Assembly: GCA_964016885.1 (NCBI GenBank)
Contig: OZ024748.1
Coordinates: 17,050,001 to 17,114,000, forward strand
DNA from: Eledone cirrhosa
Taxonomy: Eukaryota
Length of the DNA stretch: 64,000 nt
Reading direction: 5' to 3'
The position numbers and the translations under genes were made by a program. Positions 7,998-56,497 of the stretch are shown one piece after another. How positions within the stretch are numbered: the first letter of the stretch is position 1; each line of letters opens with the position of its first letter. The notes under the pieces were generated by a model. That model made no database searches, was not told the origin of the DNA, and was given only the letters and a program-made list of their open reading frames with translations.

Positions 7998-8505
7998 GTA
8001 ATCCATGTGCAACCATGTAGTATTCTTCTCCCCATATTTTTCATATATATATATATATTATTAGTACATAAGGACAGACACTGGTCTCTGGGAGACGCAG
8101 GACATAGCAGCAATGATTAAGACAAGACCGCTGGAGAGAACTTATACATGGATCTTGGGAATTTTACTTTCCCTAAATAGATTGCTTAAAATTTAATCTC
8201 TAATAATAATCTAAATGTTTCTGCTTTCATCCTTTTACAAGATCTTCTGAGTCAATCTGTTTATGCCGGAGTAAATATTGAAATATTTACTCCAGAATCT
8301 GAAGATTTTAAGTATATATAATTGATTGAGTTTTCTCAGTTTCAGAAGAACCTGTAATAGTGTGAAAGCAAAAATTCTTCGTTTAACCTTCAATCTGTAA
8401 TAATAATAAATATTTGCTCACTGGATTTATATACATGTTTTATATATATATATATATATATACAATATATTAACAAATGGAAACTATATTTATAAAACCA
8501 TATTT

Positions 8506-8569
8506 ATTTTATTATACATATTTCAAGGGCCACCAAGGCAAATAATGGTGCGCTTTCATCAGATAAAAT
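8506..8569 (-). ncRNA. Type-I hammerhead ribozyme motif, family A
   Basis: ATTTTAT-CTGATGA-[AAGCGCACCA..TGGTGGCCCTT]-GAA-ATATGTAT-A-ATAAAAT: core intact, perfect 7-bp stem I. Confidence 0.75.
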
Positions 8570-8647
8570 ACAATACAGATTAGTTTTATAAATAAATAAA
8601 TATTGACATACCCTGAAAATAGACAACCTTAATGGTTGGAGCTTCCT

Positions 8648-8682
<35 letters not shown>

Positions 8683-8802
8683 AGAAACGGGACTGTCCAT
8701 CATCAATGATCTACTGACTTTCATTAGTATTTCCTCGCATTAAAGACCAGATACCTCAAAATCAGTGCGAGCAATAACTAAAATAAGTTATTGGGACAGA
8801 GC

Positions 8803-8853
<51 letters not shown>

Positions 8854-9202
8854 GGAGGCACATGGCTTAGTGGTTAGAGCATTGGCCTTGCAATCGAAAG
8901 GTTGTGAGTTCAATTCTCAGACCGGGTGATGTGTTGTGTCCTTGAGCAAGACACTTTATTTCACATTGCTCCAGTTTATTCAGCTGTAGAAATGAGATGA
9001 TAGGGACTGGGGTCTCTATCATTCCACTGCAAAGTGGTCGTGGAGGTGCCACGGCAAAAAAGCACCCAGCACTCACTGTAAATGAGGTTGGTGTTAGGAA
9101 GGGCATCCAGCTGTAGAAATCAAGCCAAAAATCAGTTCCCGTCCCACCCTTGCAAGCAGGGAAAAGCGGACGTAAAAATGAAATGAAAATGAATGAAATG
9201 AA
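8854..9202 (+). mobile_element. tRNA-derived SINE family 1 with RTE-derived tail
   Basis: A box TGGCTTAGTGG, B box GAGTTCAATTC, tail CCCACCCTTGCAAGCAGGGAAAAGCGGACGTAAAA(TGA)n. Confidence 0.9.
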
Positions 9203-9226
9203 TATATATATATATATATATATATA

Positions 9227-9390
9227 TTTTATAGAAGGAGCTTCTACAGGACTAGTACTGTTTCATCTGAATGAAACAGTACTAGTCCTGTAGAAGCTCC
9301 TTCTATAAAATAAAAAAATTTTACTCTGCCATGTATTGAGTACCTTACTTACTGTGGTTATCCCCGACTCAACCCGGGACCTACGTATAT
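9227..9390 (+). mobile_element. Penelope-like 3' fragment beginning with a perfect 40-bp-stem hairpin (9227-9310)
   Basis: TTTTATAGAAGGAGCTTCTACAGGACTAGTACTGTTTCAT-ctga-exact reverse complement; GTATTGAGTAC motif shared with family C. Confidence 0.6.
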
Positions 9391-9780
9391 ATATATATAT
9401 ATATATATACAATCCTTATTGAGCCCTCTTCGGATTTTAGTCTTATCATTATTGGTCTAATTATTATTACTATGTTATCATCATCACTGTTTAACATCCA
9501 CCTTCCATGCTAGCATGGGTGAGACGGGTTATCCCATTTGAGGCAGGTTGGGTCAGGTGACCATATCCTGCTCATACACAATTGTTTCTGGCTATGTGTA
9601 TGTGTGTATATGTTTATATATATATTTAGTTATATATGTACATTTACTTCTGTGTATATGTTTATATATATATATATGTATTTATATAACCAAAGATTAA
9701 TATGGTTCATTGATTACTCAACGAATACAGTTTTACAATAGACTAGAAGCAGTCAACAGTAGAGTTTTCCTGGAGTTATT

Positions 9781-10121
9781 AATATTATTCAAAATATTAA
9801 GAAATGAAAAATATTCACATAATCAAAATATATACTTTATTATATATATTTCAAAGGTACTGTGCTGTTTTTTCAGTACGTCCTCATCAAACAAAATATA
9901 TGATTTGATTTATGACATACCGCTACGGTCTTGATTATTCAATTCCCGTATTGAATAATTCCAGGAATTGAATAATCAAGACCGTAGCGGTATGTCATAT
10001 ATCAAATCATATATTTTGTCTGATGAGGATGTACTGAAAAAAACAGCTTTGAAATATATATAATAAAGTATATATTTTGATTATGCGAATATTTTTCATT
10101 TGTTAACATTTTTAATAATAT
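9781..10121. mobile_element. Fold-back element with two inverted hammerhead motifs (9834-9897 minus; 10013-10069 plus), diverged family A
   Basis: Arms ~9781-9946 / 9964-10121; ATTTTGT-(C/T)TGATGA-stemII-GAA-ATATATAT-A-ATAAAGT. Confidence 0.75.
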
Positions 10122-10744
10122 GTATTTATATACATATATAGATACATATCATGTAGATCAACAACACAAAGTTTCATTGATCTACATGATATACGTACTC
10201 TGGCCACACTGTAAAGTGGTTGGTGGTATGACATTTCTTGGGTGTTTTAACGTTAGAGACCCAATCCTATCATAAAACACTATGTGAAATGAATTTTTCT
10301 TCAGAACACAACACGTTGCCCTGTCCCGAAATCAAATCCAAGACTTTATGACCACGAGCCCAACAGTTTAACCTCTTGTCCATATCTATGCAAACCCTCT
10401 GCAGCTTATTCTAAAAGTCATTTTTTTCTCTGGAGATTTCTCAATCAGAATTTGTTAGAAACTTCTTGCAACTGACACAAGAATCATTTCAGTTAGACCT
10501 TTCCTCAACCATATTTCTCTTCAAAATCTAAGATTTTAAAATAATTTTGCGAAATAATCAAGAATTTGGAGGGTTTTAGTAACATAACTATAGCTGATGT
10601 TTGAACTATTATTTAACCATTTCACTTCCATATTTCTGAGGAATGACGACACCTATAGGGTTTTTGAATAATTTTGAAAATAATTAAGAATTTAAATGAC
10701 TTTAGTAATACAACTAATTTTCTCATTATTAAGCTGGTGTTTAA

Positions 10745-10965
10745 CCCTTTAGCATTTAAACCGTCCATATCCGGCCAGAATTCTCTCACCTCTTTCTGTT
10801 CAAACTGGCCATAACTGGTCGCTTATACTGATGTTAAGGTATTGTTCTTAAAATAAATAACATCAAAATCTTGTAGATTCGATATTATGTGAGATAATTT
10901 TGCAAGATAAAGGCTTTACCACAAAAATACAATACTATGTATAGAGTAAGGTAACTCCTAAAGGG
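10745..10965. mobile_element. piggyBac-type MITE
   Basis: TTAA|CCCTTTAG...CTAAAGGG|TTAA; homologous copy at 61945-62385. Confidence 0.8.
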
Positions 10966-11209
10966 TTAAAACAAAAACTGCTTTGTATCTTAGAGATGAG
11001 GGTAATTTTGGGATCAGCTTGGTATCAAAAAGGTTAACCAAATATAATGGCTTTCAAAGACTGCACAAACACCTCTTTTTATTTTTAAGATTGGTTCAGT
11101 GCAGTGCAGTGCATAGGGTATCAACTTATTTGAAACCTGTTATAAACAAAGCTATTATTTACAGATATCTAACATAAAAAAAATTCAAAATTTCAAATAT
11201 CCATATACA

Positions 11210-11241
<32 letters not shown>

Positions 11242-11248
11242 TATATAC

Positions 11249-11301
<53 letters not shown>

Positions 11302-11368
11302 TTGGTTTGATATTTCTATTTAGTATTTATATATGTATATATATACATATACACACTCAGAGAGATAG

Positions 11369-11412
<44 letters not shown>

Positions 11413-12228
11413 ATGTATGTACCTGAATGATTACAAAATAATCAAGCAACTATTACAGTTGAATATATAAACAGTATTTGGTTTGCCAGCAATCTCAAAG
11501 AGTTCTGTAAACACTTTTAAAGTGAAGAAAAAAATCGAAAAACAAAGGACAAAGTAAAGGAGAACTCCAGTGCAGAATGTGACAGTAAAACACAACCGTT
11601 GTTAACACAAGTGTCTTTAATACAGAAACAATATATACAAACTCCATTTACAAATGGACTTGCAAATGATAGGTGTGTGCAATTCAGATCAACACATGCA
11701 TTAAGATAACTAGATAGACAAATATATTATTGTAAATATCAGACAGTGGAGAGAGGGAGAAGGAGTAAAAAAAAAAAACAGACACAGGCAAAATAGATAA
11801 TCTATCTAAAACTAAAACTAACAAGAGAGAATTCGTACATTAACCATGTTTTTTTTACCAAAACACAACTGACATTAAAATCACTGATACTAATACTAAC
11901 CATTTTCAAGCCATACATAAAAAAAAAGCCTGAACAAATATTTACATCACACTATATTTTTTCTTCCTTGAATTGTATTGTTTAAATAGTTTTCTAGGAT
12001 TAGGATTAGACTGTGGCCATGCTGAAGCAAGGTCAGTAATTGAATCAAGAGCCTCAACACCTCAAGCAGATGTTCTTAAATAATTGCAAGGCATCTCATT
12101 CAGGCTGATACCATTTTTACCACTCAACTTTGTTTTCTCTCACCTACCACTGGAACAAAAGGATGGCGTTGGTCATCTAACATGTGGTATTTATGAGGCT
12201 GTTTACATGCAAACAAACCGAATATTAA

Positions 12229-12335
12229 TAATTGTTTCTACATTAGGCACAAGGCCAGCAATTACTCAGTGTATTACTGGTACTTTATTTTATCGACCCC
12301 GTAAGGATGAAAGGCAAAGTTAACCTCGGCGGGAT
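12229..12335 (-). mobile_element. SINE family 2, 3' half
   Basis: Reverse complement of GCCTTTCATCCTTACGGGGTCGATAAAATAAAGTACCAG...GGCCTTGTGCCTAA. Confidence 0.85.
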
Positions 12336-12520
12336 ATAAACCGAATATTAATAATATTATGATATTATAATATTATTATTCATTCACGAATACATTTAGG
12401 TATCCACCATGTTAAGAGCGAAAACATTTTGATTTTTAGTTTTCGGCAAAGCCGGTTGTGAAATGGCTCAGTATGTAAATGAGGTTAACTATCCACTCTA
12501 CAGATTTGTGAATACTATAT

Positions 12521-12706
12521 ATTGGATTGGCAGTATCGGTAGAGGGTCGGACGCCATGCTTTCCAGCATAGTTACGTCCCTTTATGATCTGAGTTCAAAT
12601 CCCGCCGAGGTTGACTTTGCCTTTCATCCTTACGGGGTCGATAAAATAAAGTACCAGTAATGCACTGGTTAATTGCTGGCCTTGTGCCTAAAGTAGAAAC
12701 AATTAT
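12521..12706 (+). mobile_element. tRNA-derived SINE family 2 (central domain resembles Nin/Deu-type SINEs)
   Basis: TTGGCAGTATCGG A box, GAGTTCAAATCCC B box, GCCTTTCATCCTTACGGGGTCGATAAAATAAAGTACCAG core. Confidence 0.88.
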
Positions 12707-12958
12707 ATATTCTGAGCAGTTCCAGTGTTTAGCAGTGAGGAAAATACACAATGTTGATATGGAGCAAGACACTGGAAAACAATTGTCGATTATGTTCTCT
12801 CAGCTACTGCTGGAACAAAAGGATGACGTTATCATCTAACACGTGTTTATGAGGCTGTTTGCTTGCAAACAAACACAATATTATAATTGTTTCTACTTTA
12901 GGCACAAGGCCAGCAATTACCCAGTGCATTACTTAATATTATGATATTATTCACATAT

Positions 12959-13150
12959 GGTGGATTGGCAGTATCGGTAGAAGGTTGGAAGCCATGCTTT
13001 GCAGCAATGAGTTACACCTCTTTACAGTCTGAGTTCAAATCCTGCTGAGCTTAACTTTGCCTTTCATCCTTACGGGGTCAATAAAATAAAGCACCAGTAA
13101 TGTACTGGGATAATTGCTGGCTCTGTACCAAAAGTAGAAACAATTATTAT
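12959..13150 (+). mobile_element. SINE family 2
   Basis: Same motifs as 12521-12706. Confidence 0.85.
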
Positions 13151-13156
13151 TCACAT

Positions 13157-14164: not shown

Positions 14165-14199
<35 letters not shown>

Positions 14200-14769
14200 C
14201 TCTCTCTCTCTCTCTGCCAGTTTATCTGACCCTCCTTCTTTCTCTGTCATCTGTCTCTCTCCCTCTCTCTCTGTCATCTGTCTCTCTCCCTCTCTCTCTG
14301 TCATTTGTCTCTCTTTCTCTCTCCCTCCCTCTCTCTGTCATCTCTCTCTGTCAGTTTGTATGTTTCTCTTTGCCAGTTTCACTCTCTTTCTATCAGTTTA
14401 TATGTATCTCTCTGCCAGTTTGTCTCTCTCTCCTCCCCTCTCCCTCTCTCCCCCTATCACTTCCATATATGGCAAACTTTCTAATTATTCATCATTGTAT
14501 TGTACAGTGCAATTGTAGATGAGTTTGGGAATGTATTTAGATGCACTTAATACCAATAGACTTAGTTCTCTGTGAAATTAGAAAGTGTGGTTAAATCCCA
14601 GGGCTTTATCTAATTAATAAGGGTCTCTAAATTTTAGGCACAAGACCAGCAAGTTGATAGGGGGTGGGCGGAGTAAATTAACTTCAGTATTTTTCTGATA
14701 CTTTAATATTTTCATGATCATATTTTAATGAAATACACTATTTCAATTCAGCACTATATCTCTCTATAT

Positions 14770-14892
14770 ATATTCTGATGAAGGACTAGTGTCCGATACG
14801 TTCAGAAACTCTTCCTGCTATTTCAAGCGTTAAACTAATATATTCCCCTCCATATACTGTACCGTTTGTGTTATTATTTCTGTTTACCTTTT
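14770..14892 (+). mobile_element. Penelope-like fragment with degenerate minimal hammerhead (family D)
   Basis: CTGATGA-A-GGAC-TAGT-GTCC-GATAC(GAAAC)GT; homologue at 56379. Confidence 0.5.
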
Positions 14893-14944
14893 AAGCACGC
14901 ATGCACGCATGTACACGTACACGCACACACACATATATATATAT

Positions 14945-15080: not shown

Positions 15081-15087
15081 TGTGTGT

Positions 15088-17071: not shown

Positions 17072-17823
17072 GTATATGTGTATATCTATTCATATATGTG
17101 CGTCTGTATGTATATCTACCATTATCATCGTTTGACGTTGATGATGGTGATATACATACAGAGGCACATATATAAATAGATATACATACATACATATCTA
17201 GATATATACATTGCCACACACACACATATGTGTTTGTATGTACATATATGTATGTCTGTGTGTATGTATACATATGTTAGTGTATGTGCGTATATATATA
17301 TTTGTGGGTGGTGTATGTTTGTGTTTAGTTTCTTTTTAATAGAGAAGCAAAACATGATTAGGAAACTATAATTAAATGATGGGAATATCTCGAAAACAAC
17401 ACAACTGGTACTAGAGAGAAAGAGGGAGATAGTGAGAGGTAGATATAATAGCAGAGAGAGGGGGGGGGGATACTAAGAGATAGATAGAAATACTGGCAGT
17501 GGGAGAGAGAGAGAGAGAATCAGAGAGAAGGAAATATATATGGATATATATAATAGAGAGAGGGGGTTAGTGAAGGCAGACATAGTGAAAAGGGGGAAAT
17601 ACTGATGGGGGAGAGAAAGATAATGACAGAAAGAGTAAAGGAGAGAAAGAGAGGTAGGTAGGTGAAGGTAGATATGAAAGAGAGAGAGAGAGATTGTGAT
17701 AAAGACAGATAGTATGAGAAAGAAAGAATGATTGGCTGAAAGAAACAGATATATATATATATATTACGTTTGAGTTGTGACACGTGTTTCACAATTGATC
17801 AGCTCAAGGGTCGATCTGTATCG

Positions 17824-17877
<54 letters not shown>

Positions 17878-18370
17878 TAAGATAGTAATATGGTCGTAAA
17901 CAAGAAGAGAAGAAACCCTTCATCAGCTGTTAACTGCGATGTTTCGGCACTTAAAACAGGACATTGAAATCGATCAGCAGCGCGCCCAAGGCCTTTTATC
18001 AATTAAAAGGCCTTGAGGGAAAGAAAAGAAAAAATAGTGAGGAGAGAGGAAGAAAGAGGGAAAAACGAAGCAAACAAACCGAATGGAGGGGGGGGGGCAG
18101 GACAATGCCACATGCAAGCGAGTAACCGAGGAGAAAATAGAATAAGTTACAATGAAACAATTAGACTTGAGTTTGGTGGTCAAATAACTGCAGAGCGATG
18201 TTTCTCTGCAATCTCAGCAAAGTGAGTGCAGAGAGAGAGGGAGAGACGGCGGAGAAACCGGAAGTGAGAGGGAGAAGGGAAAGGGAGACAATCCAAAAGG
18301 GCTCTACGACATGGTTGAAACACGGTCGAAAACGATCCGATGGATAGAGAATATATATATATGTATTTAA

Positions 18371-18600
18371 TTTGAAAGTGAACAACACAATATATAACTA
18401 ATCCATTACCAAAGGTTTCAGGACCCTAGACAATATTAACATATGTCTGGATCATTCATCAGACAGAGATGTTATGAATAGAAAATATGAAATGAGATTT
18501 AAAATCTGTTAAACATTGGAAGTGAGGCTGGAAAAATAACGGAAAATATACATAGAGCACTCTTTTTTCCTTTGCTTTTTCTTCGGAATTACCTAACATA
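18371..18600. mobile_element. Family B short element: inverted hammerhead segment (18402-18467, minus) joined to plus-strand 3' end
   Basis: TCTGT-CTGATGA-[ATGATCCAGACATAT..ATATTGTCTAGGGTCCT]-GAA-ACCTTTGGT-A-ATGGA; 3' end CATAGAGCACTCTTTTTTCC..CGGAATTACCTAAC. Confidence 0.75.
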
Positions 18601-18612
18601 TATATATATATA

Positions 18613-19810
18613 TCATTATCATCATTTTATGTCTGCTATTCCTGCTTGCAAGGGTGGGATGGGTCTTATTCAGCACAGCATCTCTCCACTTGTCACGGTC
18701 CTTCGTCATCTCCACCGTGAGCTTCAGCGATCTGAGGTCTGTTCTCACCACCTCCGCCCATGTTTTTCGTGGTCTACCTCTACCACGTCTTCCTTCAACT
18801 GGTATTTCCTGGCACTTCTTCACCCATCGGTCAACCTCCATGCGCATCACATGTCCATACCACCTCAGTCTCCTCTCCTCTCCTGTACACTACATTCTAT
18901 CCCTCTCAGACACAGTTTCTCTCTCAACACATTCATGCTGGGTCGTTCACACACATTTACACTGCACATCTCCAGCCGTCGCATATCCTCTGCGGTTGCT
19001 GCCCATGTCTCACTACCATGCAGCATCGCGCTCCTCACACAGGCATCATATAACCGGCCTTTCGTACGCAGGGAGAAACCCTTCTTCATCAGCAGAGGAA
19101 GCAGCTCCCTAAACTTCTTCCAACCCGTCCTTATTCTAGATACTATGGCCTCGGAACACCCCCCCCCCGCCTCCCATGCTAATCTGATCTCCTAGGTACC
19201 GGAAGCTATCCACCACTTCTATAGCACCCGCCTGCATTTGAAAAATGTGTCTATAAATGCGACTTCTATTGTCTAATTTCCCTGTACATCTACTGCATAC
19301 GTATTTCTCCCTACCTGTTAGTTTGCCTGCTATCCCGCTACATCTCTTGTGTACCCAGGATCTGCTTGTGTGCATTTTATAGAATTTATGCCAGTTCCTT
19401 TTCTGCATATCGAACATGCCCATTTCCCTGACGGAATCAGGGTTTTGTCCTCTTTTCTACTCATCAACACTTTTGTCTTAGCTAGGTTCACTCTCAGTCC
19501 TCTTAATTCCAACTGCTGTTTCCATAGCCAGAATTTATTCTCTAGCTCCTCTACTGATTCTGCTATAAGAGCCAGATCGTCAGCATAGAGAAGTTCCCAT
19601 GGACAGCCAGTCTTAAACTCCCCTGTTATGGCTTGGAGGACTATAATGAACAAGAGCGGGCTGAGGACCGAACCTTGATGTACCCCTACTTGTATCTGGA
19701 ATTCTTCACTAAACACCATTCCTACCCTGACTTTACTGACAGCACCTCAGTACAAAGTTTGCACTGTCCTCACAAGCCATTCCTCAACACCTAGTGTCCT
19801 TGGGGACCAC
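18613..19810 (-). mobile_element. RTE-clade LINE 3' fragment (RT C-half, Cys-rich insert, tail), frameshifted
   Basis: GVHQGSVLSPLLF, LLYADDLAL, GLRVNLAKTK, FRYLGD, MLHGSETW, RGRPRKTW; ends in (TGA)n tail. Confidence 0.92.
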
Positions 19811-19818
19811 CTAATATA

Positions 19819-19998
19819 TATATTAACAATATTAATAAATGGAAAATATCTTTATAATACCATATTGTAAAGATATTTTCCATTTATTAATATTGTTAAT
19901 ATTAATAATACTGCAGATAAATCTTGTCGAGTGCTTCAAATCTGTTATAAAATTAACTTTGTTGAATGATAATCAACAAACCATATAACTCATTGTTT
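19819..19998 (+). mobile_element. Family A-related 3' end with terminal hairpin (~19819-19902)
   Basis: ATATTAACAATATTAATAAATGGAAAATATCTTTA and its reverse complement; TTGTCGAGTGCTT motif shared with 24483 and 36339 copies. Confidence 0.65.
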
Positions 19999-20420
19999 AT
20001 ATATATATATATATATAATGTATATAGGGCTAGCTAAAGACAGATAGTTTAAGAAAAAACGGAAGAGTGAATTAGAAAGAATGAGGGAGAGAGACAGGAG
20101 AAAAGGATAGTGGTAACGAGGAATAGTATGAGAGAGGGGGAGTTGGGGTAAATAGAGAATAATAATAAACATGTGTGTGTGAGAGAGAGAGAGGGGAGAG
20201 AATCAGAGAGAGACTTGAAGAGAAAGATAGTTATAAAGAGAGATAGTGTGAAACATATAGAGAGGGAGAGAGCCAGGGATAAATAGAGATACTAATAATC
20301 TGTATGAGAGAGAGAGAGAGATGGAGAGAGAACCAGAGGTAAATAGAAATACTAATAAACTGTATAATAGTGAAAGAGTGAGAGAAAGATTGAGGAAGAC
20401 AGAGTAAGGATATTTCCAGA

Positions 20421-23075: not shown

Positions 23076-23424
23076 AAATCTGAATACAAAAGTAAAAAAT
23101 TGCAGTAGAGTTACTACCTACTTCTTTTCTGCATATTTAGCACGGTCATTTACCTGTAGGCCCGTGGCGTAGTGGTAGGGGTGTTGGACTTGAGCAACAC
23201 ACTTGATATTTTTATTTTATATATGTAAATTTTCAGTACACAATGACTGATTTCAGTGTATGACAGCCCTGTGAGTACACTGGAGAAACTCCAGTGTAAC
23301 AGAGTACAAGCTTGACTTAATAATATATATATATATACCAACATAACTTTACATAGAACGGGGTGGTGTGGATGGGGTGGGGGTGGTGGCGGGACGGGGT
23401 GTATTTTGTTAGAGATGCCTACTG

Positions 23425-24165
23425 GCAAGGCGGGTCTTCTCTGTTACTGAGTACCGCCAAAGGTCTCGGTCCAGTGACATTGTCTTGGAGAGGTGTAGGT
23501 GTGTGAGGTCGGAGTTTATCAGCTCATCCCAGGTTTTTCTAGGTCTGCCTATTCCGTGGCTACCGTCTATCTTTATTGCCCTGCACTTTGTTATACAGCT
23601 ATCGACTTTCATGCGCATCACGTGTCCATACCAACGCAGCCTTCTCTCGAGTAAACAACATCTGATCCCTCTTATCTCTAATTTTTTCCTTAGTTCGTTT
23701 ATGCTTTGCCGTTCACGTATATTACTGTTACACATCCAGCGGAGCATGCAAGCTTCGTTCCTCTCTAGTCTGCGTATATCCTCTGCACACAATGCCCAGG
23801 TCTCACTGCCATGCAACATTGCTGTTCGTATGCAGGCATCGTACAACCTGCCTTTCATTTTTAGGGAGAACCCTTTAGCAGCTAATAGTGGTATAAGCTC
23901 TCTGAACTTTTTCCAACCAGTTCTGACTCTAGCTACAGTACTTTCAGAGCACCCTCCCCCACTGCTGATTTTATCGCCCAGGTAACGGAAGCTGTCCACT
24001 ATTTCTATAGAACCCTCTGCGCAATTGAAAGAGCTAGTATTTTGTGGGCACTTGCTGCTACTTATTGCACCAGATCACCGGCCACATGTAAAATCTATGT
24101 TCTTAGTTAGCTTACCTGTGATCCCACTACATCTTTTATGCACCCATACTTTGCATTTAGGACAT
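23425..24165 (-). mobile_element. RTE-clade LINE 3' fragment (second subfamily)
   Basis: CKVWVHKRCSGI..CGR, FRYLGDKISSGGG, RRLRWYGHVMR, GRPRKTW. Confidence 0.9.
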
Positions 24166-24459: not shown

Positions 24460-24613
24460 ATATATATATATATATATATATGCAAAAGTTTTATTTAAAA
24501 TTGTTGGGTTACAACAAGTAAATATTTTATAACTGATATAAAGCACTCGACAAGTTTTTGGAGTAGATATACGATATTAAACAAATGGAAACTATATTTA
24601 TAAAACCATATTT

Positions 24614-24677
24614 ATTTCATTATACATATTTCAGGGATACCATATTAAAAATATGGCATGCCTTCGTCAGATAAAAT
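24614..24677 (-). ncRNA. Type-I hammerhead ribozyme motif
   Basis: ATTTTAT-CTGACGA-AGGCATGCCATAT-TTTTA-ATATGGTATCCCT-GAA-ATATGTAT-A-ATGAAAT. Confidence 0.8.
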
Positions 24678-24773
24678 ACAATATATAAACAGTTTTATAA
24701 ATAATTTTGACGTACCATATTATAAGCGACCATTATATTATGAAAATTATTTATAAAACTGTTTATATATTGT

Positions 24774-24837
24774 ATTTTATCTGACGAAGGCATGCCATAT
24801 TTTTAATATGGTATCCCTGAAATACGTATAATGAAAT
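24774..24837 (+). ncRNA. Type-I hammerhead ribozyme motif; predicted cleavage after 24830
   Basis: Intact core CUGACGA/GAAA/UA, 13-bp stem II with one mismatch, palindromic stem III AUACGUAU, 7-bp stem I. Confidence 0.82.
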
Positions 24838-25173
24838 AAATATGGTTTTATAAATATAGTTTCCATTTGTTTAATATCGTATAGATATATATATATATAT
24901 GTGTGTGTGGTTAGAGCATTGGCCTTGCAATCAAAAGGTTGTGAGTTCAATTCTCAGACTGGGTGATGTATTGTTTCCTTGAGCAAGTTACTTTATTTCA
25001 CATTGTTGCAAATATAGGCGTTTGTTTATGTGACAATGCATATATTTATCCTTATATACATATATATGTGTGTGTGTTTATAAATATATATATATATATG
25101 ATCATGTGTGTTTATGGGGCAACACATATTTAACATTCTCTTCTCTCTCTGTATACATACATTATATATATAG

Positions 25174-25518
25174 AGAGGCACATGGCTTAGTGGTTAGAGC
25201 ATTGGCCTTGCAATCGAAAGGTTGTGAGTTCAATTCTCAGACCGGGTGATGTGTTGTTTCCTTGAGCAAGACACTTTATTTCACATTGCTCCAAGTTTAC
25301 TCAGCTGTAGAAATGAGATGATAGGGACTGGGGTCCCTATCATTCCACTGCAAAGTGGTCGTGGAGGTGCCACGGGAAAAAAAAAAAGCACCCAGCACTC
25401 ACTGTAAATGAGGTTGGTGTTAGGAAGGGAATCCAGCTGTAGAAATCAAGCCAGCATCAGTTCCCGTCTCACCCTTGCAAGCAGGGAAAAGCGGACGAAA
25501 AATGATGATGATGATGAT
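25174..25518 (+). mobile_element. SINE family 1, full length
   Basis: As 8854-9202; partial head also at 24908-25006. Confidence 0.9.
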
Positions 25519-32015: not shown

Positions 32016-32082
32016 GATTCTGATGAGATTAACATAACAGGAATGAATATTCCTGGTATGTTAATCAAAACATTCATTAATC
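32016..32082 (+). ncRNA. Degenerate hammerhead motif with long stem II (family E)
   Basis: GATT-CTGATGA-GATTAACATA.CAGGAAT-GAAT-ATTCCTG.TATGTTAATC-AAAAC(GAAAC)..T-T-AATC. Confidence 0.55.
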
Positions 32083-32346
32083 AATTAAATAATTTAATTT
32101 AATTTAATCATGGCTATTTTTATTCGTATATCTCGATAGGTCGAGAAATAAAATTCTAATTTTATTTTTAATATTCAGCAAGGCCAACCAACCGTAACTC
32201 ACTCGGTATGCAAATGAGGCTACTCAGCCGATATGTACTTAAGAAAATACTATATATATATATATATATATATACTATATATATACTATATACATATACA
32301 CTATATAAATACTATATATATAATATCTATACACACACACTAGCTG

Positions 32347-32551: not shown

Positions 32552-32899
32552 CGGAGACACATGGCTTAGTGGTTAGAGCATTGGGCTTGCAATCGAAAGG
32601 TTGTGAGTTCAATTCTCGGACCGGGTGATGTGTTGTTTCCTTGAGCAAGACACTTTATTTCACATTGCTCCAGTTTACTCAGCTGTAGAAATGAGATGAT
32701 AGGGACTGGGGTCCCTATCATTCCACTGTAAAGTGGACGTGTAGGCGCCACGGAAAAAAAGCACCCAGCACTCACTGTAAATGAGGTTGGTGTTAGGAAG
32801 GGCATCCAGCTGTAGAAATCATGCCAGAATCAGTTCCCGTCCCACCCTTGCAAGCAGGGAAAAGCGGACGTAAAATGAAATGATGATGATGATGATGAT
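32552..32899 (+). mobile_element. SINE family 1
   Basis: Full length. Confidence 0.9.
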
Positions 32900-33132
32900 A
32901 TACATATCATCACTGTTTAGCATCTATTTTTCCATGCTTAGTCGGGTCAGCCACACTGGGAGGCAAGTCTGGCTAGAGTTGGCCATGCCATAACTCACTC
33001 CTATGAGGAATGTATATTTGGTCGAGTAATTAACTGCTGGATGCCCTTCCTAACAACAACCACATTTACAGTGTGGAACTGGTTGGCTCCTTTATGAAGA
33101 GGGATATATATATATATATACATATGTATATA

Positions 33133-33468
33133 TCATCATCATTTCATTTTACGTCCGCTTTTTCCCTGCTTGCAAGGGTGAGACGGGAACTGGTTCTGGC
33201 TTGATTTCTACAGCTGGATGCCCTTCCTAACACCAACCTCATTTACAGTGAGTGCTGGGTGCTTTTTTGCCGTGGCACCTCCACGACCACTTTGCAGTGG
33301 AATGATAGGGACCCCAGTCCCTATCATCTCATTTCTACAGCTGAGTAAACTGGAGCAATGTGAAATAAAGTGCCTTACTCAAAGAAACAACACATCACCC
33401 GGTCTAAGATTTGAACTCACAACCTTTCAATTGCAAGGCCAATACTCTAACCACTAAGCCATGTGCCT
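33133..33468 (-). mobile_element. SINE family 1, tail-to-tail with the 32552 copy
   Basis: Full-length reverse complement. Confidence 0.9.
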
Positions 33469-33556: not shown

Positions 33557-33743
33557 GAAGGAAATGTGGTAAGGAACCAGGTGGACCATAACGCACCAAA
33601 GTACTCAATACTTGGGGTAGTAGAGTGGGTAATAGGAACCAGTAAGACCCCGACGGCTGAGCTCAAGCCGTTTCGACGGCTAATTCTGGAATTAGCCGTC
33701 GAAACGGCTTGAGCTCAGCCGTCGGGGTCTTACTGGTTCCTAT
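33553..33743 (-). mobile_element. Family C short element ending in a perfect 55-bp-stem hairpin (33632-33743)
   Basis: ATAGGAACC..GCTAATTC-tg-GAATTAGC..GGTTCCTAT; contains GAAACGGCT..AGCCGTC (hammerhead 3' half with GUC). Confidence 0.75.
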
Positions 33744-35837: not shown

Positions 35838-36337
35838 TGTGTATGGAACACATTCATGTTTTCTCTCTCTTGCTGCTTAGATACACTCATATACATACAC
35901 ACACTGACATACATACACACACTGACATACATACACACACTCATATACATACACACACTGACACACATACACACACTGACACACATACACACAACTGTGA
36001 ATTGGCAGTCATCAGTCCAGAGCGTTAAATGTCATTGTAAGGCTGACTGTGGTCTGAGTTCAAATCTCAAAGAACTCCACTTTGCCTATCACCCGTTTGG
36101 TGTTGATCCAAATATTACAATCTAGCGGCAGTCGGGGAATTGATGAAAATGTCAGGAGGAAAGCTTTGCACTACCTGATCCTGCTTTGTATATTTTGATT
36201 TCAAAGACTGTCTCCTTCTTCCAGGAGTTGAGAATGACAGATAATATCCCCCAATGGAAAGTCTAATGGAAGCAATTTCATTAGCTTACTCTGACAATTG
36301 GCACCTTTCATTTTCTGATATATATATATATATATAT

Positions 36338-36770
36338 ACAATATTAAATAAATGGAAACTATATTTATAAAACCATATTTATTTCATTATATATATTTCA
36401 GGGATATCATATTAACAATATGCTATGCCTTCCTCAGACAAAATACAATATAAACAGTTTTATAGATAAATAGATTCGACATACCGTAACAACATCGACT
36501 TGCATTTGAAGAGGTTGATGGTCATGTTGTTACGGTATGTCGAATCTATTTATCTATAAAACTGTTTATATTGTATTTTGTCTGAGGAAGGTATAACATA
36601 TTGTTAATATGATATCCCTGAAATATATATAATGAAATAAATATGGTTTTATAAATATAGTTTCCATTTATTTAATACTGTAAATATACTCCAAATATTT
36701 GTCGAGTGCTTTTATATCAGTTATAAATATTTACTAGTTGTAACCCAACAATTTTAAATATAACTTTCCA
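36338..36770 (+). mobile_element. Family A fold-back element with hammerheads at 36381-36444 (minus) and 36575-36638 (plus)
   Basis: Arms ~36338-36495 / 36524-36682; ATTTTGT-CTGAGGA-stemII-GAA-ATATATAT-A-ATGAAAT; 3' end AACCCAACAATTTTAAATA.AACTTT then (TA)n. Confidence 0.83.
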
Positions 36771-36784
36771 TATATATATATATA

Positions 36785-37296: not shown

Positions 37297-37540
37297 TATA
37301 TATATAAACATATCTGAGGACCTTGAGAATGCAGAGTCGGGTTCGATCTATAATAGATCCTGCCTTGAGCTGATTGTCGGAGAAACATATGGAATATGTT
37401 AATAAATTGTGTTTTGATGCATCACTGATTCCTTGTTATCTATAATAATATACTCTGCTCTGCATGAACATCGAGTGTTCAAATGGCATACTGCCTACAG
37501 ACGCATTTATTGAAACCTTACGACAACTATATATATATAG

Positions 37541-37845
37541 GAAATTTGCTTTCAGTCATCAGAATGAAAAAATCCTGATGTATTTATTGACAGTGGATTT
37601 TAAAAACAAAAATATAATCTATATCTATAGATATAGATTATATTTTTGTTTTTAAAATCCACTGTCATATTGACATCAGGATTTTTTCATTCTGATGACT
37701 GAAAGCAAATTTCTTTTGCTTTCAAGAAACCACTGGTAAATGAAATAATTATCTTATGTTGTTTATTACATAACTATTAAGCTCTGTAACCTACATAGAA
37801 CACTCTTTTTTCCTGGACTTTTCCAACGGAATTACTTCATTTACA
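37541..37845 (+). mobile_element. Family B element: palindrome 37541-37713 overlapping a hammerhead at 37685-37745
   Basis: TTTCATT-CTGATGA-CTGAAAGCAAA-TTTCT-TTTGCTTTCAA-GAA-ACCACTGGT-A-AATGAAA. Confidence 0.8.
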
Positions 37846-38498: not shown

Positions 38499-38505
<7 letters not shown>

Positions 38506-38995
38506 TAAATCATGTCTTTAGAATCATCAGATAATAAAATATATACTATTTCTTCTTCTAATTAGCATAATTAACCATATAAAAATTCAATCAGAACAAG
38601 CTATAAGAATAAATGCTCTTATGGGGAAATCTCCGACAAATAACCGAACTCAGGACATTCCTATTATTTGGATGTCCAAAATAAGGAAGAAACCATGGTA
38701 GAGATATAATTACGGCATGTGCGCATTTCTTCTAAGTTTAATTTTACAACTGATTGTGTATGGTTGATGGTATATTTAGTCAGTTTCTACATGCTGTCGA
38801 AATGTTGGATAAATACTCGACTGGGGCCGCCGCGAAGAGGCTACGTTCGGTTATTTGTCGGAGATTTCCCCCAAGAGCATTTATTCTTATAGCTTGTTCT
38901 GATTGATTTTTTTATATGGTTAATTATGCTAATTAGAAGAAGAAATAGTATATATTTTATTATCTGATGATTCTAAAGACATGATTTATGATATA
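38499..38995. repeat. ~150 bp inverted repeat (38499-38649 / 38845-38995); probable Penelope-like fragment
   Basis: Arms nearly exact reverse complements; (TA)n flank. Confidence 0.85.
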
Positions 38996-39827
38996 ATGCT
39001 CTGATTTTTTAATTTATTAATTCTTCATAGAGCTTAAAAGTGAACAGTTGCAACATATATATATCTATAACTTTATGTATATGTTAACCTTTATATATAT
39101 ATATCATCATCATCATCGTTTAATGTCCATCTTCCATGTTAGATGGTTTTGTTCCATTTGATGTGGGAATGGTCAGGAGACCATGTCTTGCTCTCATGAA
39201 AGCGTCTCTGGCAGGTTTTTTTTACAGCTGGATGCCCTTCCTAACATCAACCACATTTACAGTGTGGGCTATATATATACATATATATATAACGTGTGTA
39301 TGTGTGTGTGTAAGACTTTGTCTTGTGGTCACACCCACCGATAGCTAGATCTTCAGATGTAAACCACAAGGAGAAATTGAGATCTAGAATTTTTAAAGGT
39401 AGTTGACATTGTTTTCAATTTCATTTTAGCAAACGTGTAATGTATAAATTTCTTTTTATCAAAAGCTAATTTATTTTTCAGGAATAGTTTTCCCAGAGAA
39501 AATCGGGTGGTTGGTTAAATATATATATATATTTCTTCTTCTTCTTACTGTTATTGTTAGTGTAGAATTGCAAAGGAAAGAGATGAGAATATTGATGAGG
39601 CATACAACTATTTAAACAAGCAAAGAAAAATCTAATTTGTATATTTTCCTATCTTCGTTCTCGGGTCCTTTCTGATATGGATCGAAGTTAGATATTCCAA
39701 TAAATAATTTGGTTTTCTTGTTGCTATTGTTGTTCTTGCTACTTCTCTTTATCATTTGGAAGTAATTTCAAATGAAATTATATATCTATATAAATATATA
39801 TATATATATATATGCGCGTACACACAC

Positions 39828-42628: not shown

Positions 42629-42831
42629 TATATATATATATATAGTAATAAAAATAATTATATATATATATATATATAGTGTTGGTAGTACGGGCGGAGG
42701 AGCAGATTGATACCGGAGTCAGATCCATAGCTCCTATGGGTCACCTTGAGCCAATCCTCTGCAAAACACGTGTAACAGGTCGATACTCAATAAATATTTT
42801 TATATGTAAATGAAACTTCCTCGTTTTTTTC

Positions 42832-42894
<63 letters not shown>

Positions 42895-43060: not shown

Positions 43061-43097
<37 letters not shown>

Positions 43098-43274
43098 GGT
43101 TTGAGGTTCACCACTGTATAGAGCTGGTCTATTCCGTATGGTCAATCGTAATGTAATAATATAGAGAGTACTCAACGTAAAACAACGGAACCCGGTCATT
43201 GAAATGATCATAGTATAATAAACCTTTCAAGGATTTACACAAATCCAGCCTCCTGTCATTTCATTATAATATAT

Positions 43275-43312: not shown

Positions 43313-43598
43313 ATTCGTTCTTGAATTTGTTTTGCAAGATTTCTTATCTGAAAACGTGTGTTGAAACAGATATTGTTATACTTTGGGAGAGTCATGTTGT
43401 CAATAAAACAAGGAGATAGACACAAAATAAAATCCTATTCACTGAGTAGGTCAGAATGTGTGACGAAAGCGCTTTGACAATATATAAACAACCTTCTGGT
43501 TATCAAACCAATCAACCAACCAGAAACTTGTAATAAATTGAAGTGAAATCCAACAGGTGCATGTGTTTTTATTGGCAACATGACCCTTCCAAAGTATA

Positions 43599-43645
<47 letters not shown>

Positions 43646-43647
<2 letters not shown>

Positions 43648-43793
43648 CGAAGGAAGTTTGGTAAGGAACCAGGTGGACCATAATGCACCAGAGTACTTGA
43701 TACCTTGGGTAGTAGAGTGGGTAATAGGATAAGAGTCAGGACCCCGATGGCTGAGCCAGAACTCAGCCATCGGAGTCCTGACTCTTTTCCTAT
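43646..43793 (-). mobile_element. Family C short element with terminal hairpin
   Basis: ATAGGA.AAGAGTCAGGACCCCGATGGCTGAG / CTCAGCCATCGGAGTCCTGACTCTT.TCCTAT. Confidence 0.75.
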
Positions 43794-45882: not shown

Positions 45883-46080
45883 ATTAGAAAGTGAACAACA
45901 CAATATATAACTAATCCATTACTAAAGGTTTCAAGACCCTAGACAATATTAACATATGTCTGGATCATTCATCAGACAGAGATGTTATATATTGTGTTGT
46001 TCACTTTCTAATTAAATAGCTCTGTTCTAGACATAGAGCACTCTTTTTTCCTTTGCTTTTTCTTCGGAATTACCTAACAT
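45883..46080. mobile_element. Family B element: inverted hammerhead (45915-45980, minus) inside a 29-bp inverted repeat
   Basis: Near-identical to 18371-18475; IR 45883-45911 / 45984-46012. Confidence 0.78.
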
Positions 46081-46094
46081 ATATACATATATAT

Positions 46095-46716
46095 CATCAT
46101 CATCATCATTTTATGTCCGCTTCTCTCTAATTCCCTCAAAATGAAAGGCAGACTGTATGATGCATGTATACGAACAGCAATGTTACATGGTAGTGAGACC
46201 TGGGCGCTGTCTTGCTCATACAGGAACTGATTTTGGCTTGATTCCTACAGCTGGATGCCCTTCCTAACACCAACCTCATTTACAGTGAGTGCTACACGTC
46301 CACTTATAAGTGTGGGCTGGGTGCTTTTTTTGCCATGGCACCTCCACGACCACTTTGCAGTGGGAGGGAGTGAGGGAATATTGTCTATATGCTTCAGCTT
46401 CGGCTTGTACCCGTGGGGGGTTGGGTCTTCTGTATTACTGCATGACACCACAGGTCACAGTCCTGTGTCATTGCCTTTGAGAGGTGCAATTGGGTAAGGT
46501 CGGCTTTTATCACTTCATCCCAGGTCTTCTTGGGTCTCCCCACTCTGCGGCTTCCATTGATTTCTAGTGCTCTGCACCTTTTTATGCAGCTGTCATCCTT
46601 CATACGCATCACATGTCCATACCAACGCAACCTCCTCTCCTGCACACAGCATTTCATTCCTCTTATGCTCAGTCTCTCTCTCAATTCATTTAGGCTTTGC
46701 CGTTTGCGTATATTAC
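46095..46716. mobile_element. Rearranged RTE fragments (~46130-46210 plus; 46420-46716 minus) with a SINE1 piece between
   Basis: MKGRLYDACIRTAMLHGSETW (plus); RRLRWYGHVMR..GRPKKTW (minus). Confidence 0.82.
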
Positions 46717-48949: not shown

Positions 48950-49019
48950 TGAATTTATGTATGAGGGTGATGAATTAGTAGTATCAGTAGAGCATTAGAC
49001 AATATGGGTGAGCAGAGAC

Positions 49020-53100: not shown

Positions 53101-53743
53101 ATGTATTAACTGCACTAGAAATAGGTGCTTATTGGCTTAAATAAATAATCAGCTAACATGTTAGAGTTAGATACAGAAACACAGATTAGAAAGGACTCAG
53201 GAGAGAGAGGTGCTGCTGCTGGTACTGCAGGTGGTACTGCTGCTGGTACTGCTGCTGGAGCTGCTAGTGCTGTTTTTCTACCAATGGTATAGAACAACAG
53301 AACAATACTATTCCTAAGTAGCTATACTTTTATTCAGTCATTAGACCTTGGCCATGCTGGGGCATTCTCAAGTAAATATTCTTTTATTCCTTTAACTTGT
53401 TTCAGTCAAGAGATTGTGGCCATGCTGGAGTATTCCTAAATATATTTTTATTCCTTTAAATTGTTTTAGTCCTTTTATTGATTTTAGTCATTAGACAGTG
53501 GCCATGCTGGGGTATTCATTATTTATAATGCCAACCACATTTGCAGTGTTTGCTGGGTGCTTTTTGTCATGATATCTACCATATATATGTGTGTGTGTGT
53601 ATATATTGATATTTAACACTTGATGGTTGTTTCTAATTAGATCGTTGATATCCATAGAGTCAGCTATTTTGAATTAATAGAATTGTCCTTTGAACTGTTT
53701 CACCAATTTATGCAAATTACCTTTTCTCGTAACGATCTGTTGA

Positions 53744-54086
53744 ATCATCACCATCATTATCATTTTATGTCCGCTTTTCCCTGCTTGCAAGGGTGGGACG
53801 AGAACTGATTCTGGCTTGATTTCTACAGCTGGATGCCCTTCCTAACACCAACCTCATTTACAGTGAGTGCTGAGTGCTTTTTTGCCATGGCACCTCCACG
53901 ACCACTTTGCAGTGGAATGATAGGGACCCCAGTCCCTATCATCTCATTTCTACAGCTGAGTAAACTGGAGCAATGTGAAATAAAGTGTCTTGCTCAAGGA
54001 AACAACACATCACCTGGTCTGAGAATTGAACTCACAACCTTTCGATTGCAAGGCCAATGCTCTAACCACTAAGCCATGTGCCTCCA
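53744..54086 (-). mobile_element. SINE family 1, full length
   Basis: Reverse complement match. Confidence 0.9.
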
Positions 54087-54849
54087 TTAATATGAATATA
54101 ATTAACATGAATATAATTAGAAATACTTTTACAATACATCAAATTCAACACATTTAAAATTTTACGTTATATTTTATCTGAAAGACTCTTTTTTTTTTAA
54201 ATAATAAAAAATGTAGGGGTTTAGTAATATAACTTTTTAATTAAACTGGTGTTTTGAACATAACTTAACAGTTTCTTAGATAAAAATTATCATGGAAGTT
54301 TTTATTTTAGACACATATCTAAAATTCTTAGCAAATGCATAGTAATATAGACTACCAAGTCATACTTGATTATGAGGGTTTAAGATTTTAATTCTGAAGT
54401 AGTGATTAAAGAAACCTAATGACATTTACATAATATAATTTAGTTTGATATGTTTTTTTTTAAACTTGCTGACAGAAATGTTTCTGTGATAGTCAGAAAT
54501 TACTAAGAATTAATGACTTTAGATTCCCAACCGATATAATGACTCTCTTAAGATATTTACTACTAAACAAGTCATAGCTAGTTCTCTATAGATACTAATT
54601 AAAATATTGATGATGTTAAATACCAAGAGCAATAGACTGTTCTAATTTTCAAAGCTGCTGGGGATTAACATGGCTTTCTAGACTCCCACCGGGGTCATAT
54701 ATACAAAATACCACCAATAATAAACTGTAATTGAATATATTATTATAGTTGTTCTGATACTAATTTGGTACCATGCCAAGTCAAATGAACTTATCATCAT
54801 CATCACCAACATCTTAATTGTTGTTGATATGTAACCCTTCTGATACTAT

Positions 54850-55092
54850 ATGTCTGAAACCACCCTGGTTCTTCGACATACCAAAATACCTGAAACCACC
54901 CTGGTTCTACTTCATACCAAAATGTCTGAAACCACCCTGGTTCTACTTCATACCAAAATTTCTGAAACACCTCTGGTTCTTCAACATAACAAAATGTTTG
55001 AAACTACCCTGGTTCTATAACATACCAACATTTCTTAAACACCCTGATTCTACAACATACAGAAATGCCTGAACCCACCCTGGTTCTACAAC
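54850..55092. repeat. 36-bp minisatellite, ~6.5 copies
   Basis: CTGAAAC(C)ACC at 54854, 54890, 54926, 54962. Confidence 0.88.
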
Positions 55093-55614
55093 GCAAAGTT
55101 GTTTGATTCAAAATGTTTAAATTTACACCTGCCATTATAATTTTATGTAAGGACATTTTCATAAGGTACATTCCAAACTCTAGCCTAAAACTAAAACAAA
55201 GTTATGTTTTACTAAATTCTTCCAAATCCTTGATAATTTTTTCAAAATTAATTAAACATCAAAGGCAGTGACTTGCATTAAAAATATAAAGAGTTTAAAG
55301 GGTTAATTCTTGTTTACCTCACAGTGTGTGAGAGTTTCTTATCTCCTGCATGGATATGAGTCAGCTGAAAAATTAAGGCCCTGAAGGTTCTTTAGTATCC
55401 AGATTCTTCAGAAGATTCTATCAGCCCCCATTTGGTATTACATAGTAATCCTTCATTGAACATAAACCACATGAACTGTCTCTACTCTGTTGTTAGTGTT
55501 GTGAGACTTCTGTCACTTCTCACAACCTGTATTACAGCAATTTGATCAACGAAACAGCCTTCTCATGAAATTAATGTGCAAATGGCTGAGTATTCCCATA
55601 ACACATATATACTC

Positions 55615-55808
55615 CAGACCTGTCAACTCTCCCCATCTGAAGGGGAGATCTCCCACCTACTTTGTGGTGGGTGAGAGATGTCTTTTCTTGTAAAAATGGG
55701 TATAATTTTCATTATATAAAATCTCATCATTTTTGCCTCATTTCTCTGTTTGGAGGCACTTTTATTCATAGTACTCCCTGTTCGGGTTTTTAGAGGTTGG
55801 CAGGTCTG
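55615..55808. mobile_element. hAT-like MITE with ~6-bp TSD
   Basis: TIR CAGACCTGTCAAC / GTTGGCAGGTCTG; flanks ATACTC and ATACCC. Confidence 0.65.
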
Positions 55809-56371
55809 ATACCCTAAACTAATTCAGTCAATATATTAGGGCAAATGTTAAAGAAGGTTGCTTCACTAACATAAGATCTTAGTTTCAATCCTATAGTGTA
55901 AGTATTTTGAACAAGTGTCATTTACCATAGCCCCAGCTTGACCTGTCTCTTGTCAGTGAAATTGGGTAGACAGAAACTGTTTCGAAGCCTGTCATAAGGA
56001 CTCTAGCTGTAATTCAAAGTGACAGACTTGTCACACAGCATCATGTTGACTCTCCCGGAGAATGATATTAAAGGTACATGTGCAATGCTCAGAGATTTAC
56101 ACATAATTTCAAGAACATGCTGCTCCACTGATTAAACAACTGGAATATTCATAGTTGAAACCAATGGCTGTTCATTCCATACACTTGCACGCATGCATGC
56201 ACACACACACACACGCACGCACGCACACACGTACACACACATACAGAGAGAGAGAGAGAGAGATGTATAGAGGTATAACACGGGCGTCTTTGCTCAAATC
56301 TTTTTTTCACGCTCCTTCCTCTTCTGACACTCTTTCTATTTCACATTTTATTTCTCATTTTATTTCTCATT

Positions 56372-56497
56372 CTATCTCCTGATGAAGGACTAGTGTCTGA
56401 AACATGAAGACTCTTTTCCTACTATATCAAGCATTAAACTAATACACTTCTTCATTGTACTGTGTTGTTTGCTTTGTTGTTTCGATTTACATCTTGC
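56372..56497 (+). mobile_element. Family D Penelope-like fragment with minimal hammerhead-like core
   Basis: CTGATGA-A-GGAC-TAGT-GTCT-GAAAC; downstream AAGCATTAAACTAATA shared with 14770 and 60655. Confidence 0.5.

Follow-up and report, generated by a model that had tools for sequence, protein, structure and literature searches.

The window analysed here, a stretch of 64,000 nucleotides of the Eledone cirrhosa genome (contig OZ024748.1), has a GC content of 33%, contains many microsatellites and carries short repeated units with hammerhead ribozyme motifs next to (TA)n. An earlier description made from the letters of this DNA, called hereafter the sequence-only reading, had ascribed these units to an undescribed system of elements devoid of open reading frames (ORFs). 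The results reported below indicate instead that most of them are very probably 5'-truncated copies of autonomous Penelope-like elements (PLEs), and that the head-to-head pairs formed by those of the Hydra clade were likely produced by priming of reverse transcription on both target strands, at two sites of one RNA. This interpretation is based on the linkage of the units to ORFs, a ladder of truncations, the presence of two 3' ends, the pairing of a long with a short arm, the likeness of the two arms and the location of the short ends on TA. Long and short refer here to the two 3' ends found in each of families A to D, and signed positions within an element are counted from the predicted cleavage site. 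The features of the window are the following, pairs and palindromes being given without a strand:

8455..8650, minus strand: A-group single arm with the short end, core at 8562, predicted cleavage after 8513, 80% to the family A parent region
9228..9385: pair of family G, its parent untraced, with the junction in stem II; other copies show the full core
9692..10121: A2 head-to-head pair, long arm on the minus strand (core at 9890, TTGATGA), short arm on the plus strand (core at 10020)
14757..14893, plus strand: 3' terminus of a Neptune-type PLE (family E), 85% to that of the ORF-bearing locus L390
14946..15075: C-related short palindrome, cut within stem III, without 5' core
17766..17824, minus strand: D-like fragment, 3' half of the hammerhead, parent not traced
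18364..18598: family B pair, short arm on the minus strand (-147 to about +43, core at 18462), long arm on the plus strand
19817..20000: A-group pair devoid of any hammerhead, cut on the downstream side of the ribozyme
24485..24887: family A-group pair, long arm on the minus strand (core at 24670), short arm on the plus strand (core at 24781), 89-90% to L021
28739..28930, minus strand: B3 long arm, core CTGACAA
31975..32250, plus strand: candidate hammerhead site of undecided class, CTGATGA plus a long hairpin, GAAA missing
33559..33743: pair of family C lacking the 5' core, its arms meeting within stem II
36331..36769: family A pair, short arm on the minus strand (core at 36437), long arm on the plus strand (core at 36582), 96-98% to the intact parent L021
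37110..37293: pair of family C, its arms meeting within stem II
37304..37527, plus strand: long arm of family D with a mutated cleavage triplet, the core CTGAGGA and a long, branched stem II
37540..37830: B2 pair, complete hammerhead at 37692 (plus strand), assigned by 72-77% similarity to B/B3
42680..42835, plus strand: degenerate D-like copy whose parent is untraced
43647..43790: pair of family C, its arms meeting within stem III
45883..46087: family B pair, short arm on the minus strand (core at 45975), long arm on the plus strand from +9
56357..56524, plus strand: family E 3' end of an older subfamily, 76% to L390
60657..60755, plus strand: family E fragment downstream of the ribozyme, 83% to L390

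The upstream part of the arm at 8455..8650 was found again in L169, and the A2 pair was assigned through 74% similarity to A, its parent ORF not being traced. In the family B pair at 18364..18598 the long arm is reduced to its tail (+55 onward) and the arms do not overlap. The minimal hammerhead at 14757..14893 carries GATA in place of GAAA, and positions 32195-32247, within the site of undecided class, are 81% like the 482-bp tandem unit of L326. Four family C fragments, as well as those at 9228-9385, 17766-17824, 19817-20000 and 60657-60755, were absent from the sequence-only reading.

Regarding the hammerheads, a core-like sequence was found within about 60 nt of all 16 positions previously named, and locally shuffled windows yielded no match to a strict type-I descriptor in 30 out of 30 cases, showing that the motifs are real. 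Ten of them had been described as complete. Nine carry an exact CTGANGA...GAAA core (10020, 24781, 36582 and 37692 on the plus strand; 8562, 18462, 24670, 36437 and 45975 on the minus strand) and eight pass the strict descriptor, which also gave one weak match at 10636 that had not been listed, but the motif at 9890 (minus strand) departs from the core by one change (TTGATGA) and part of stem II is deleted at 10020. The motif at 45975 misses the descriptor solely through its stem III rule. Each of the six sites previously considered degenerate bears a core lesion relative to its own family, and no second copy of the hairpin at 32016 was found among the loci examined. Covariation was assessed on 41 distinct variants of the A-type stem II, whose sequences are related and whose events are not independent: positions 2, 3, 5, 6 and 9 are paired in 38-40 of the 41 variants, with A-U/G-C swaps, pairs 5-9 are satisfied 179 times out of 205 (permuted mean 140, maximum 155), and position 4 is an invariant mismatch. 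Loop III of the A type is mostly palindromic (TATATA, TGCGCA, TACGTA), with TATGTA in 16 of 55. The conserved core and the stem covariation, whose lack would have spoken against the sequence-only reading, are thus both present in the A-type variants, and the motifs are type-I hammerheads with a conserved core and covarying stems I-III. The stem II and loop III pattern of the A group is that expected of the dimer-type hammerheads described in PLEs, and the published minimal hammerheads of PLEs cleave weakly (PMC4209133). The ribozymes considered here are predicted ones. A search with Rfam found no hammerhead family among the best 150 of 335 window matches, and no hammerhead reached the gathering score in five loci; the Rfam models miss these variants.

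As the sequence-only reading had stated, the window holds no Penelope reverse transcriptase (RT) or GIY-YIG ORF: none was found by a profile search, and a single tblastn match (E=0.003, window 28-264) was not recovered by the profile. Linked RT-GIY-YIG ORFs, which that reading had suggested looking for, were found elsewhere in the genome for families A to E. The search with window 36500-36770 led to L021, the family A parent, which is 97.6% identical to window 36525-36775 and comprises, in this order, an inverted 5'-truncated arm, a pseudo-long terminal repeat (pLTR), an uninterrupted 737-aa ORF, a 1.5-kb untranslated region (UTR) and a second pLTR, the pLTR-to-pLTR unit measuring about 4.1 kb. 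The structural model of the 737-aa product (predicted local distance difference test score 86) matches telomerase reverse transcriptase (TERT) best (E 2.5e-10), and the protein has RWR, SDKTNN (DKT), a CxCX5C linker and CxxC/CxH around E and N, without CCHH. All of the 150 scored matches to the family A endonuclease end are 99-100% identical, in open frames of 162-1206 aa, a series that reads as the truncation ladder of a young family. A first look at proteins genome-wide had given 54,380 and 61,417 candidates.

In family B, the ORF end and a long repetitive UTR are collinear with B sequence in L170, L171 and L176, and the CxCX5C linker was read from L351. Family C shows the succession ORF end, UTR and C sequence in L307 and L278, and in L271 its tail runs into the N-terminus of the ORF; RWR is present, and the C-terminal Hydra motifs were read from the L307/L278 matches. 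The ribozyme core of family C is a U3-A8 variant, which has been reported (PMC4209133); a CTGANGA pattern tried earlier for this family gave 24 heterogeneous matches and was abandoned, the true core lying further upstream. In family D, the ORF end lies upstream on the same strand in L203, L211 and L213, and the protein has the linker and CxH. L149 and L197 were rejected as D-ORF links for an inverted fragment, and L214 and L350 for a neighbour separated by TA. PDB sequence searches gave nothing useful. The only homolog bearing a name, a protein of Argonauta, suggests an octopod host, as does the repeat landscape.

These elements display the organisation of endonuclease-bearing (EN+) PLEs, with a single ORF encoding a telomerase-like RT and a GIY-YIG endonuclease (L021; RVT_1 in L390) and, in L021, pLTRs, a partial tandem together with an inverted 5'-truncated copy, and a tail at one end. 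They further share with the Hydra clade (PMC8557442) a C-terminal GIY-YIG domain without CCHH, the CxCX5C linker, DKT for DKG, the N-terminal RW(K/R) motif of RWK type, CxxC/CxH, insertion into (TA)n and a type-I hammerhead about 100 nt from the 3' end; an inverted 5'-truncated copy, as seen here, has also been noted for Penelope-13_HM. The length of family A (about 4.1 kb) exceeds the usual size of the clade (<3 kb), which is a tendency and not diagnostic. On these motifs and linkages, families A to D trace to ORF-bearing Hydra-clade PLEs. Since this also applies to family E, which traces to ORF-bearing PLEs of the Neptune type (see below), the proposal of an ORF-less undescribed system in the window does not hold, whereas the Penelope-type hammerheads with inverted 5' ends that had been invoked are borne out. 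The outcome comes close to the case that the sequence-only reading had opposed to its own proposal, in which the copies are ordinary pLTR truncations of catalogued Penelope families.

A protein search with P0028 retrieved another two families of Hydra type, absent from the window, whose 830-aa frames are intact (L053-L082); most of their 71 scored copies have near-identical scores, and they are likely very young. Locus L022 (G000:C4:268669000-268678000) contains a 4.2-kb inverted duplication, 99.6% identical and reaching beyond the element ends, which may be a genuine fold-back duplication or an error of assembly.

The 3' ends of families A to D are bimodal, the two positions being 73-81 nt apart (+55/+135 in A, +40/+100-120 in B, +20/+95 in C and +55/+130 in D), and every short end sits on TA within the element. 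The defined 3' end previously placed about 100-140 nt after the cleavage site is thus indeed fixed, but there are two such ends per family, not one. In an unbiased sample of 91 evenly spaced 10-kb regions of the 3.0 Gb genome, 24 of the 25 inverted pairs associate a long with a short arm, the remaining one being unclassified. Over all loci, most of which were picked by similarity and among which overlapping ones were collapsed by sequence, the 125 pairs comprise 114 long+short, two long+long, no short+short and nine unclassified or cross-family; the two long+long cases correspond to an internal pLTR and to two separate copies. The arms of a given insertion diverge by 1.1, 1.5, 3.0 and 6.5% in A, B, C and D, compared to 6.1, 7.8, 7.2 and 9.3% after permutation, the former being lower, in each family, than any value from 300 permutations, though narrowly so for D. 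In 34 of 114 pairs the 5' extent of the short arm exceeds that of the long arm by more than 15 nt, and in 14 of 114, including window 18364-18598, the long arm consists of the tail only, so that in these pairs neither arm is a fold-back copy of the other. The arms overlap at the junction in 57 of 114 pairs. About 40 of the 59 sampled C arms end within stem II, 29-45 nt upstream of the cleavage site, pointing to a stalling of the RT by the folded ribozyme. A C-to-T difference at the A short end was dropped as not systematic. The family B long end (e.g. L025, L029, L051) is often followed by (AC)n and then (TA)n, unlike the short end; this (AC)n may be templated or reflect a target preference.

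These data can be accommodated in the following scheme, all steps of which we infer from genomic structure. The predicted hammerhead would lie just upstream of the PLE 3' end, in the Hydra-clade families A-D and in the Neptune-type family E. At a nicked (TA)n target, both strands would prime reverse transcription at two fixed sites of one RNA: the GIY-YIG domain would nick both target strands, one RT would start at the long site and the other at the short site, and both would as a rule end within some 150 nt, stem II of the ribozyme being the main stopping place in family C. The two cDNA ends would then be joined through short overlaps or filler. More tentatively, the template may be uncleaved or re-ligated RNA, because the copies read through the cleavage site; a circular template would fit the partial-tandem parent and the tandem arrays described below. 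Family E would use single priming, because it has one 3' end and no inverted arm in 30 copies. In a bolder form, to which we give about an even chance, a dimeric RT-endonuclease would carry out programmed twin priming on a single RNA, each nicked (TA)n strand having its own fixed site that starts with UA and the two sites being about 75-80 nt apart; rolling around circular hammerhead RNAs, this machinery would also write tandem arrays of 310-556-bp units, and it would have left some 10^5 motifs in the genome. If true, programmed twin priming would account for the inverted-pLTR and one-sided-tail structures, which have long been open.

Several observations weigh against this interpretation. The family A ORF matches no Pfam family, its end giving a weak GIY-YIG hit (E 0.068), and the Hydra-clade placement is one by motifs. 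The ORF links of B, C and D come from broken, older copies; A2, B2 and B3 were assigned by similarity, and the D-like, G and F pieces, together with several TA-flanked ones, have no traced parent. The loci outside the sample were mostly picked with palindromic queries, which inflates the pair counts, and of the 91 sampled arms 41 stand alone (20 long, 8 short, 13 unclassified). Six of the 54 C pairs and four of the eight D pairs have a short arm that resembles an arm of another insertion more closely, and L093 appears to be a mix of two subfamilies; some pairs may therefore derive from two RNAs. The likeness of the arms could also stem from shared source loci or from gene conversion.

Among the other explanations, the one that fares best accepts the elements as PLE ends and has the inversion arise by self-priming or fold-back, either of the cDNA or of an antisense template, the latter being the published reading of PLE palindromes (PMC3846280). 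The near identity of the arms within an insertion, the 57 overlapping junctions and the clustering of junctions in hairpins would all be expected from it, but fold-back leaves unexplained why a second end should be fixed 73-81 nt inside the first, and it cannot yield the pairs with a longer short arm or with a tail-only long arm; we therefore regard it as unlikely. Somewhat less likely still, both strands would be primed but each arm would usually come from a different RNA held by a dimer. This would account for L093, for the C and D pairs with a closer outside partner and for one direct C-like/D join in L166, but the divergence within insertions, lower than in any permutation, and the scarcity of cross-family pairs (2 of 125, one of which is merely two adjacent insertions) speak against it; an early idea that arms come from different RNAs had been mostly rejected on that same divergence. 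Self-propagation of the short units as non-autonomous elements (monomeric retrozymes or SINE-like) borrowing PLE proteins is improbable, since the many near-identical 193-bp family C palindromes with the same junction (30/30 loci) were selected with a query containing that junction, sampled C junctions vary and the C palindromes lack the 5' catalytic core, and since family E, despite its abundant exact core and clustered 5' ends, has a 5' ladder reaching an ORF, and the true tandem ORF-less arrays that occur in the genome have no counterpart in the window.

Two-strand, two-site priming on one RNA, which we favour, would fit the behaviour of the Anolis Poseidon element in vitro, where both target strands are cleaved and extended, reverse transcription starts at two adjacent internal sites and ribozyme cleavage is dispensable (PMC11167929). 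Poseidon and the present families share two adjacent internal RT starts delimiting a tail, as well as AT-rich targets. By contrast, the Poseidon sites lie inside the ORF, 30-40 nt apart, whereas those of A and C are upstream of the ORF start, and the long+short pairing of inverted insertions, counted here, is not quantified for Poseidon in the part of that work available to us. Inverted pLTRs with a one-sided tail of 30-40 bp have been published, compared to tails of 73-81 nt here; the origin of both structures in PLEs is called unresolved in PMC8557442, and twin priming differs from the antisense self-priming proposed in PMC3846280. The strict long+short geometry is what is new here.

In LINE-1 (long interspersed element 1), twin priming involves two primers on one RNA and leads to a 5' inversion. 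Here, unlike in LINE-1, the internal site is fixed and the arms usually overlap, so that twin priming would need strand displacement.

Hydra-clade PLEs with hammerheads and (TA)n preference have been described, including Hydra-1_Obim of Octopus bimaculoides (PMC8557442, File S1/S2), whose listed hammerhead differs from those found here. The present families depart from the known Hydra clade by the greater length of their 3' UTRs (1.5 kb for family A and about 1.2 kb for family C), by several hammerhead designs (dimer-type, branched stem II, and a U3-A8 core with stable stem III) and by a very high abundance. For Octopus vulgaris, a repeat annotation of 2026 gives 30 Penelope families with recent activity; neither "hammerhead" nor "ribozyme" occurs in its main text. 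In the literature searched, mostly outside subscription papers, neither the present families nor a twin priming of PLEs was found described. Taken together, the motifs are real and the kind of element known, and the families are new as judged against the literature searched. With young families carrying intact ORFs, thousands of short insertions and a near-exceptionless long+short rule, an open mechanism becomes testable biochemically.

To compare densities, one descriptor was applied alike to the window and to the sample. It gave 69 matches in the sample, or 4.85 per 64 kb (0-1 in shuffles), about 30 of which fall in five tandem arrays, and six in the window; a stricter descriptor without stem mismatches, which gave 28 and none, respectively, was replaced. 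The A-D arms are about 3-fold more frequent in the window than in the sample (20 versus 6.4 per 64 kb). Long TA runs amount to 285 in the window versus 153 in the sample. The density claimed to be high is thus only moderately so, and the window is a TA-rich yet ordinary piece of the genome. The association with TA is confirmed, (TA)3 adjoining 65 of 76 sampled arm ends versus a background of 10.8%. Pieces of Hydra-type ORFs were found in 17 of the 91 sampled regions, and extrapolation of the sample gives about 1.3 x 10^5 dispersed motifs genome-wide, about 2.3 x 10^5 in total. This load, roughly 1-2 x 10^5 motifs, can be set beside the minimal motifs of Schistosoma and Xenopus (about 2,000 and 9,000, respectively; PMC4209133) and the 120,000 copies of retrozymes given for axolotl (PMC7229834). 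The Hydra clade, known from 27 listed families, can thus form a dominant repeat class, and its short palindromic copies are easily mistaken for miniature inverted-repeat transposable elements (MITEs) or short interspersed elements (SINEs).

Family E differs from families A-D in having a single 3' end, at +90-95, and its 5' ends form a ladder from -39 to -429; a fixed 5' end considered at first was dropped on seeing it. Its 30-nt core has 3,435 exact copies. An RT-GIY-YIG ORF is linked to it in L363 and L390, with RVT_1 at E 6e-4 in L390; hhalign against a Hydra alignment gave 91%. The translations of both loci contain a CX4CxxC linker and a CCHH endonuclease, in line with the CX2-5CxxC linker and CCHH endonuclease of Neptune (PMC8557442). 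The top matches to its endonuclease are 84-93% to the query, from which family E appears to be older. No inverted E arm was seen at the junction among 30 pattern-picked copies, and a search for homologs of an 86-aa fragment found none. Compared to Neptune PLEs, family E stands out by its one 3' end, (CA)n/(TA)n flanks and the lack of a second inverted arm in these copies. In L363, L377 and L390, a pyrimidine tract ending in CAG and resembling a 3' splice site lies about 230 nt upstream of the ribozyme; it recalls the intron that Penelope of D. virilis reportedly has beside its hammerhead.

Tandem ORF-less arrays were encountered in five of the sampled regions, with units of 310-311 bp (L264, L323), 467 bp (L294), 482 bp (L326) and 556 bp (L296). 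Units are 98-100% identical with one hammerhead each, and the arrays end at (TA)n. In L323, the two inverted tandem arms differ in their ends; in L264, the inversion junction holds a fragment of family C. Judged by their structure, these arrays look like non-LTR retrozymes using PLE machinery. They match the metazoan retrozymes, whose type-I hammerheads lie in 150-450-bp units and for which PLE origin and mobilisation have been proposed (PMC7229834; bioRxiv 10.64898/2026.07.22.740005; the word "octopus" is absent from the text of the latter), whereas the window elements are non-tandem and collinear with ORFs in longer copies. The retrozyme idea of the sequence-only reading consequently fails for the window but holds for these other loci, because tandem ORF-less hammerhead arrays exist there.

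The window also contains further TA-flanked repeats (7424-8045, 8680-8804, 17875-18340, 38500-39040, 43095-43262 and 43313-43602), several of them head-to-head with unequal ends. They have relatives in other loci, with a full hammerhead elsewhere in the 43313 family, and their parents are not traced. At 2157-3983 (minus strand), within a long TA-rich satellite, lies the broken 3' part of a LINE (zf-RVT, E 1.4e-5) with a PDIV-type endonuclease motif, presumably R4/Dong-like. Distinct from it, fragments of another non-LTR element at 23412-24074 (minus strand), 18600-19200 and 46400-46700, with a 221-aa frame devoid of Pfam match, are taken to be RTE-like. A SINE-like repeat of 350 bp, whose copies are 92-96% identical and often adjoin (ATG)n and (TA)n, occurs at six places:

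8854-9200: SINE-like repeat copy
25175-25518: SINE-like repeat copy
32553-32893: SINE-like repeat copy
33132-33468: SINE-like repeat copy
53747-54085: SINE-like repeat copy
56538-56813: SINE-like repeat copy

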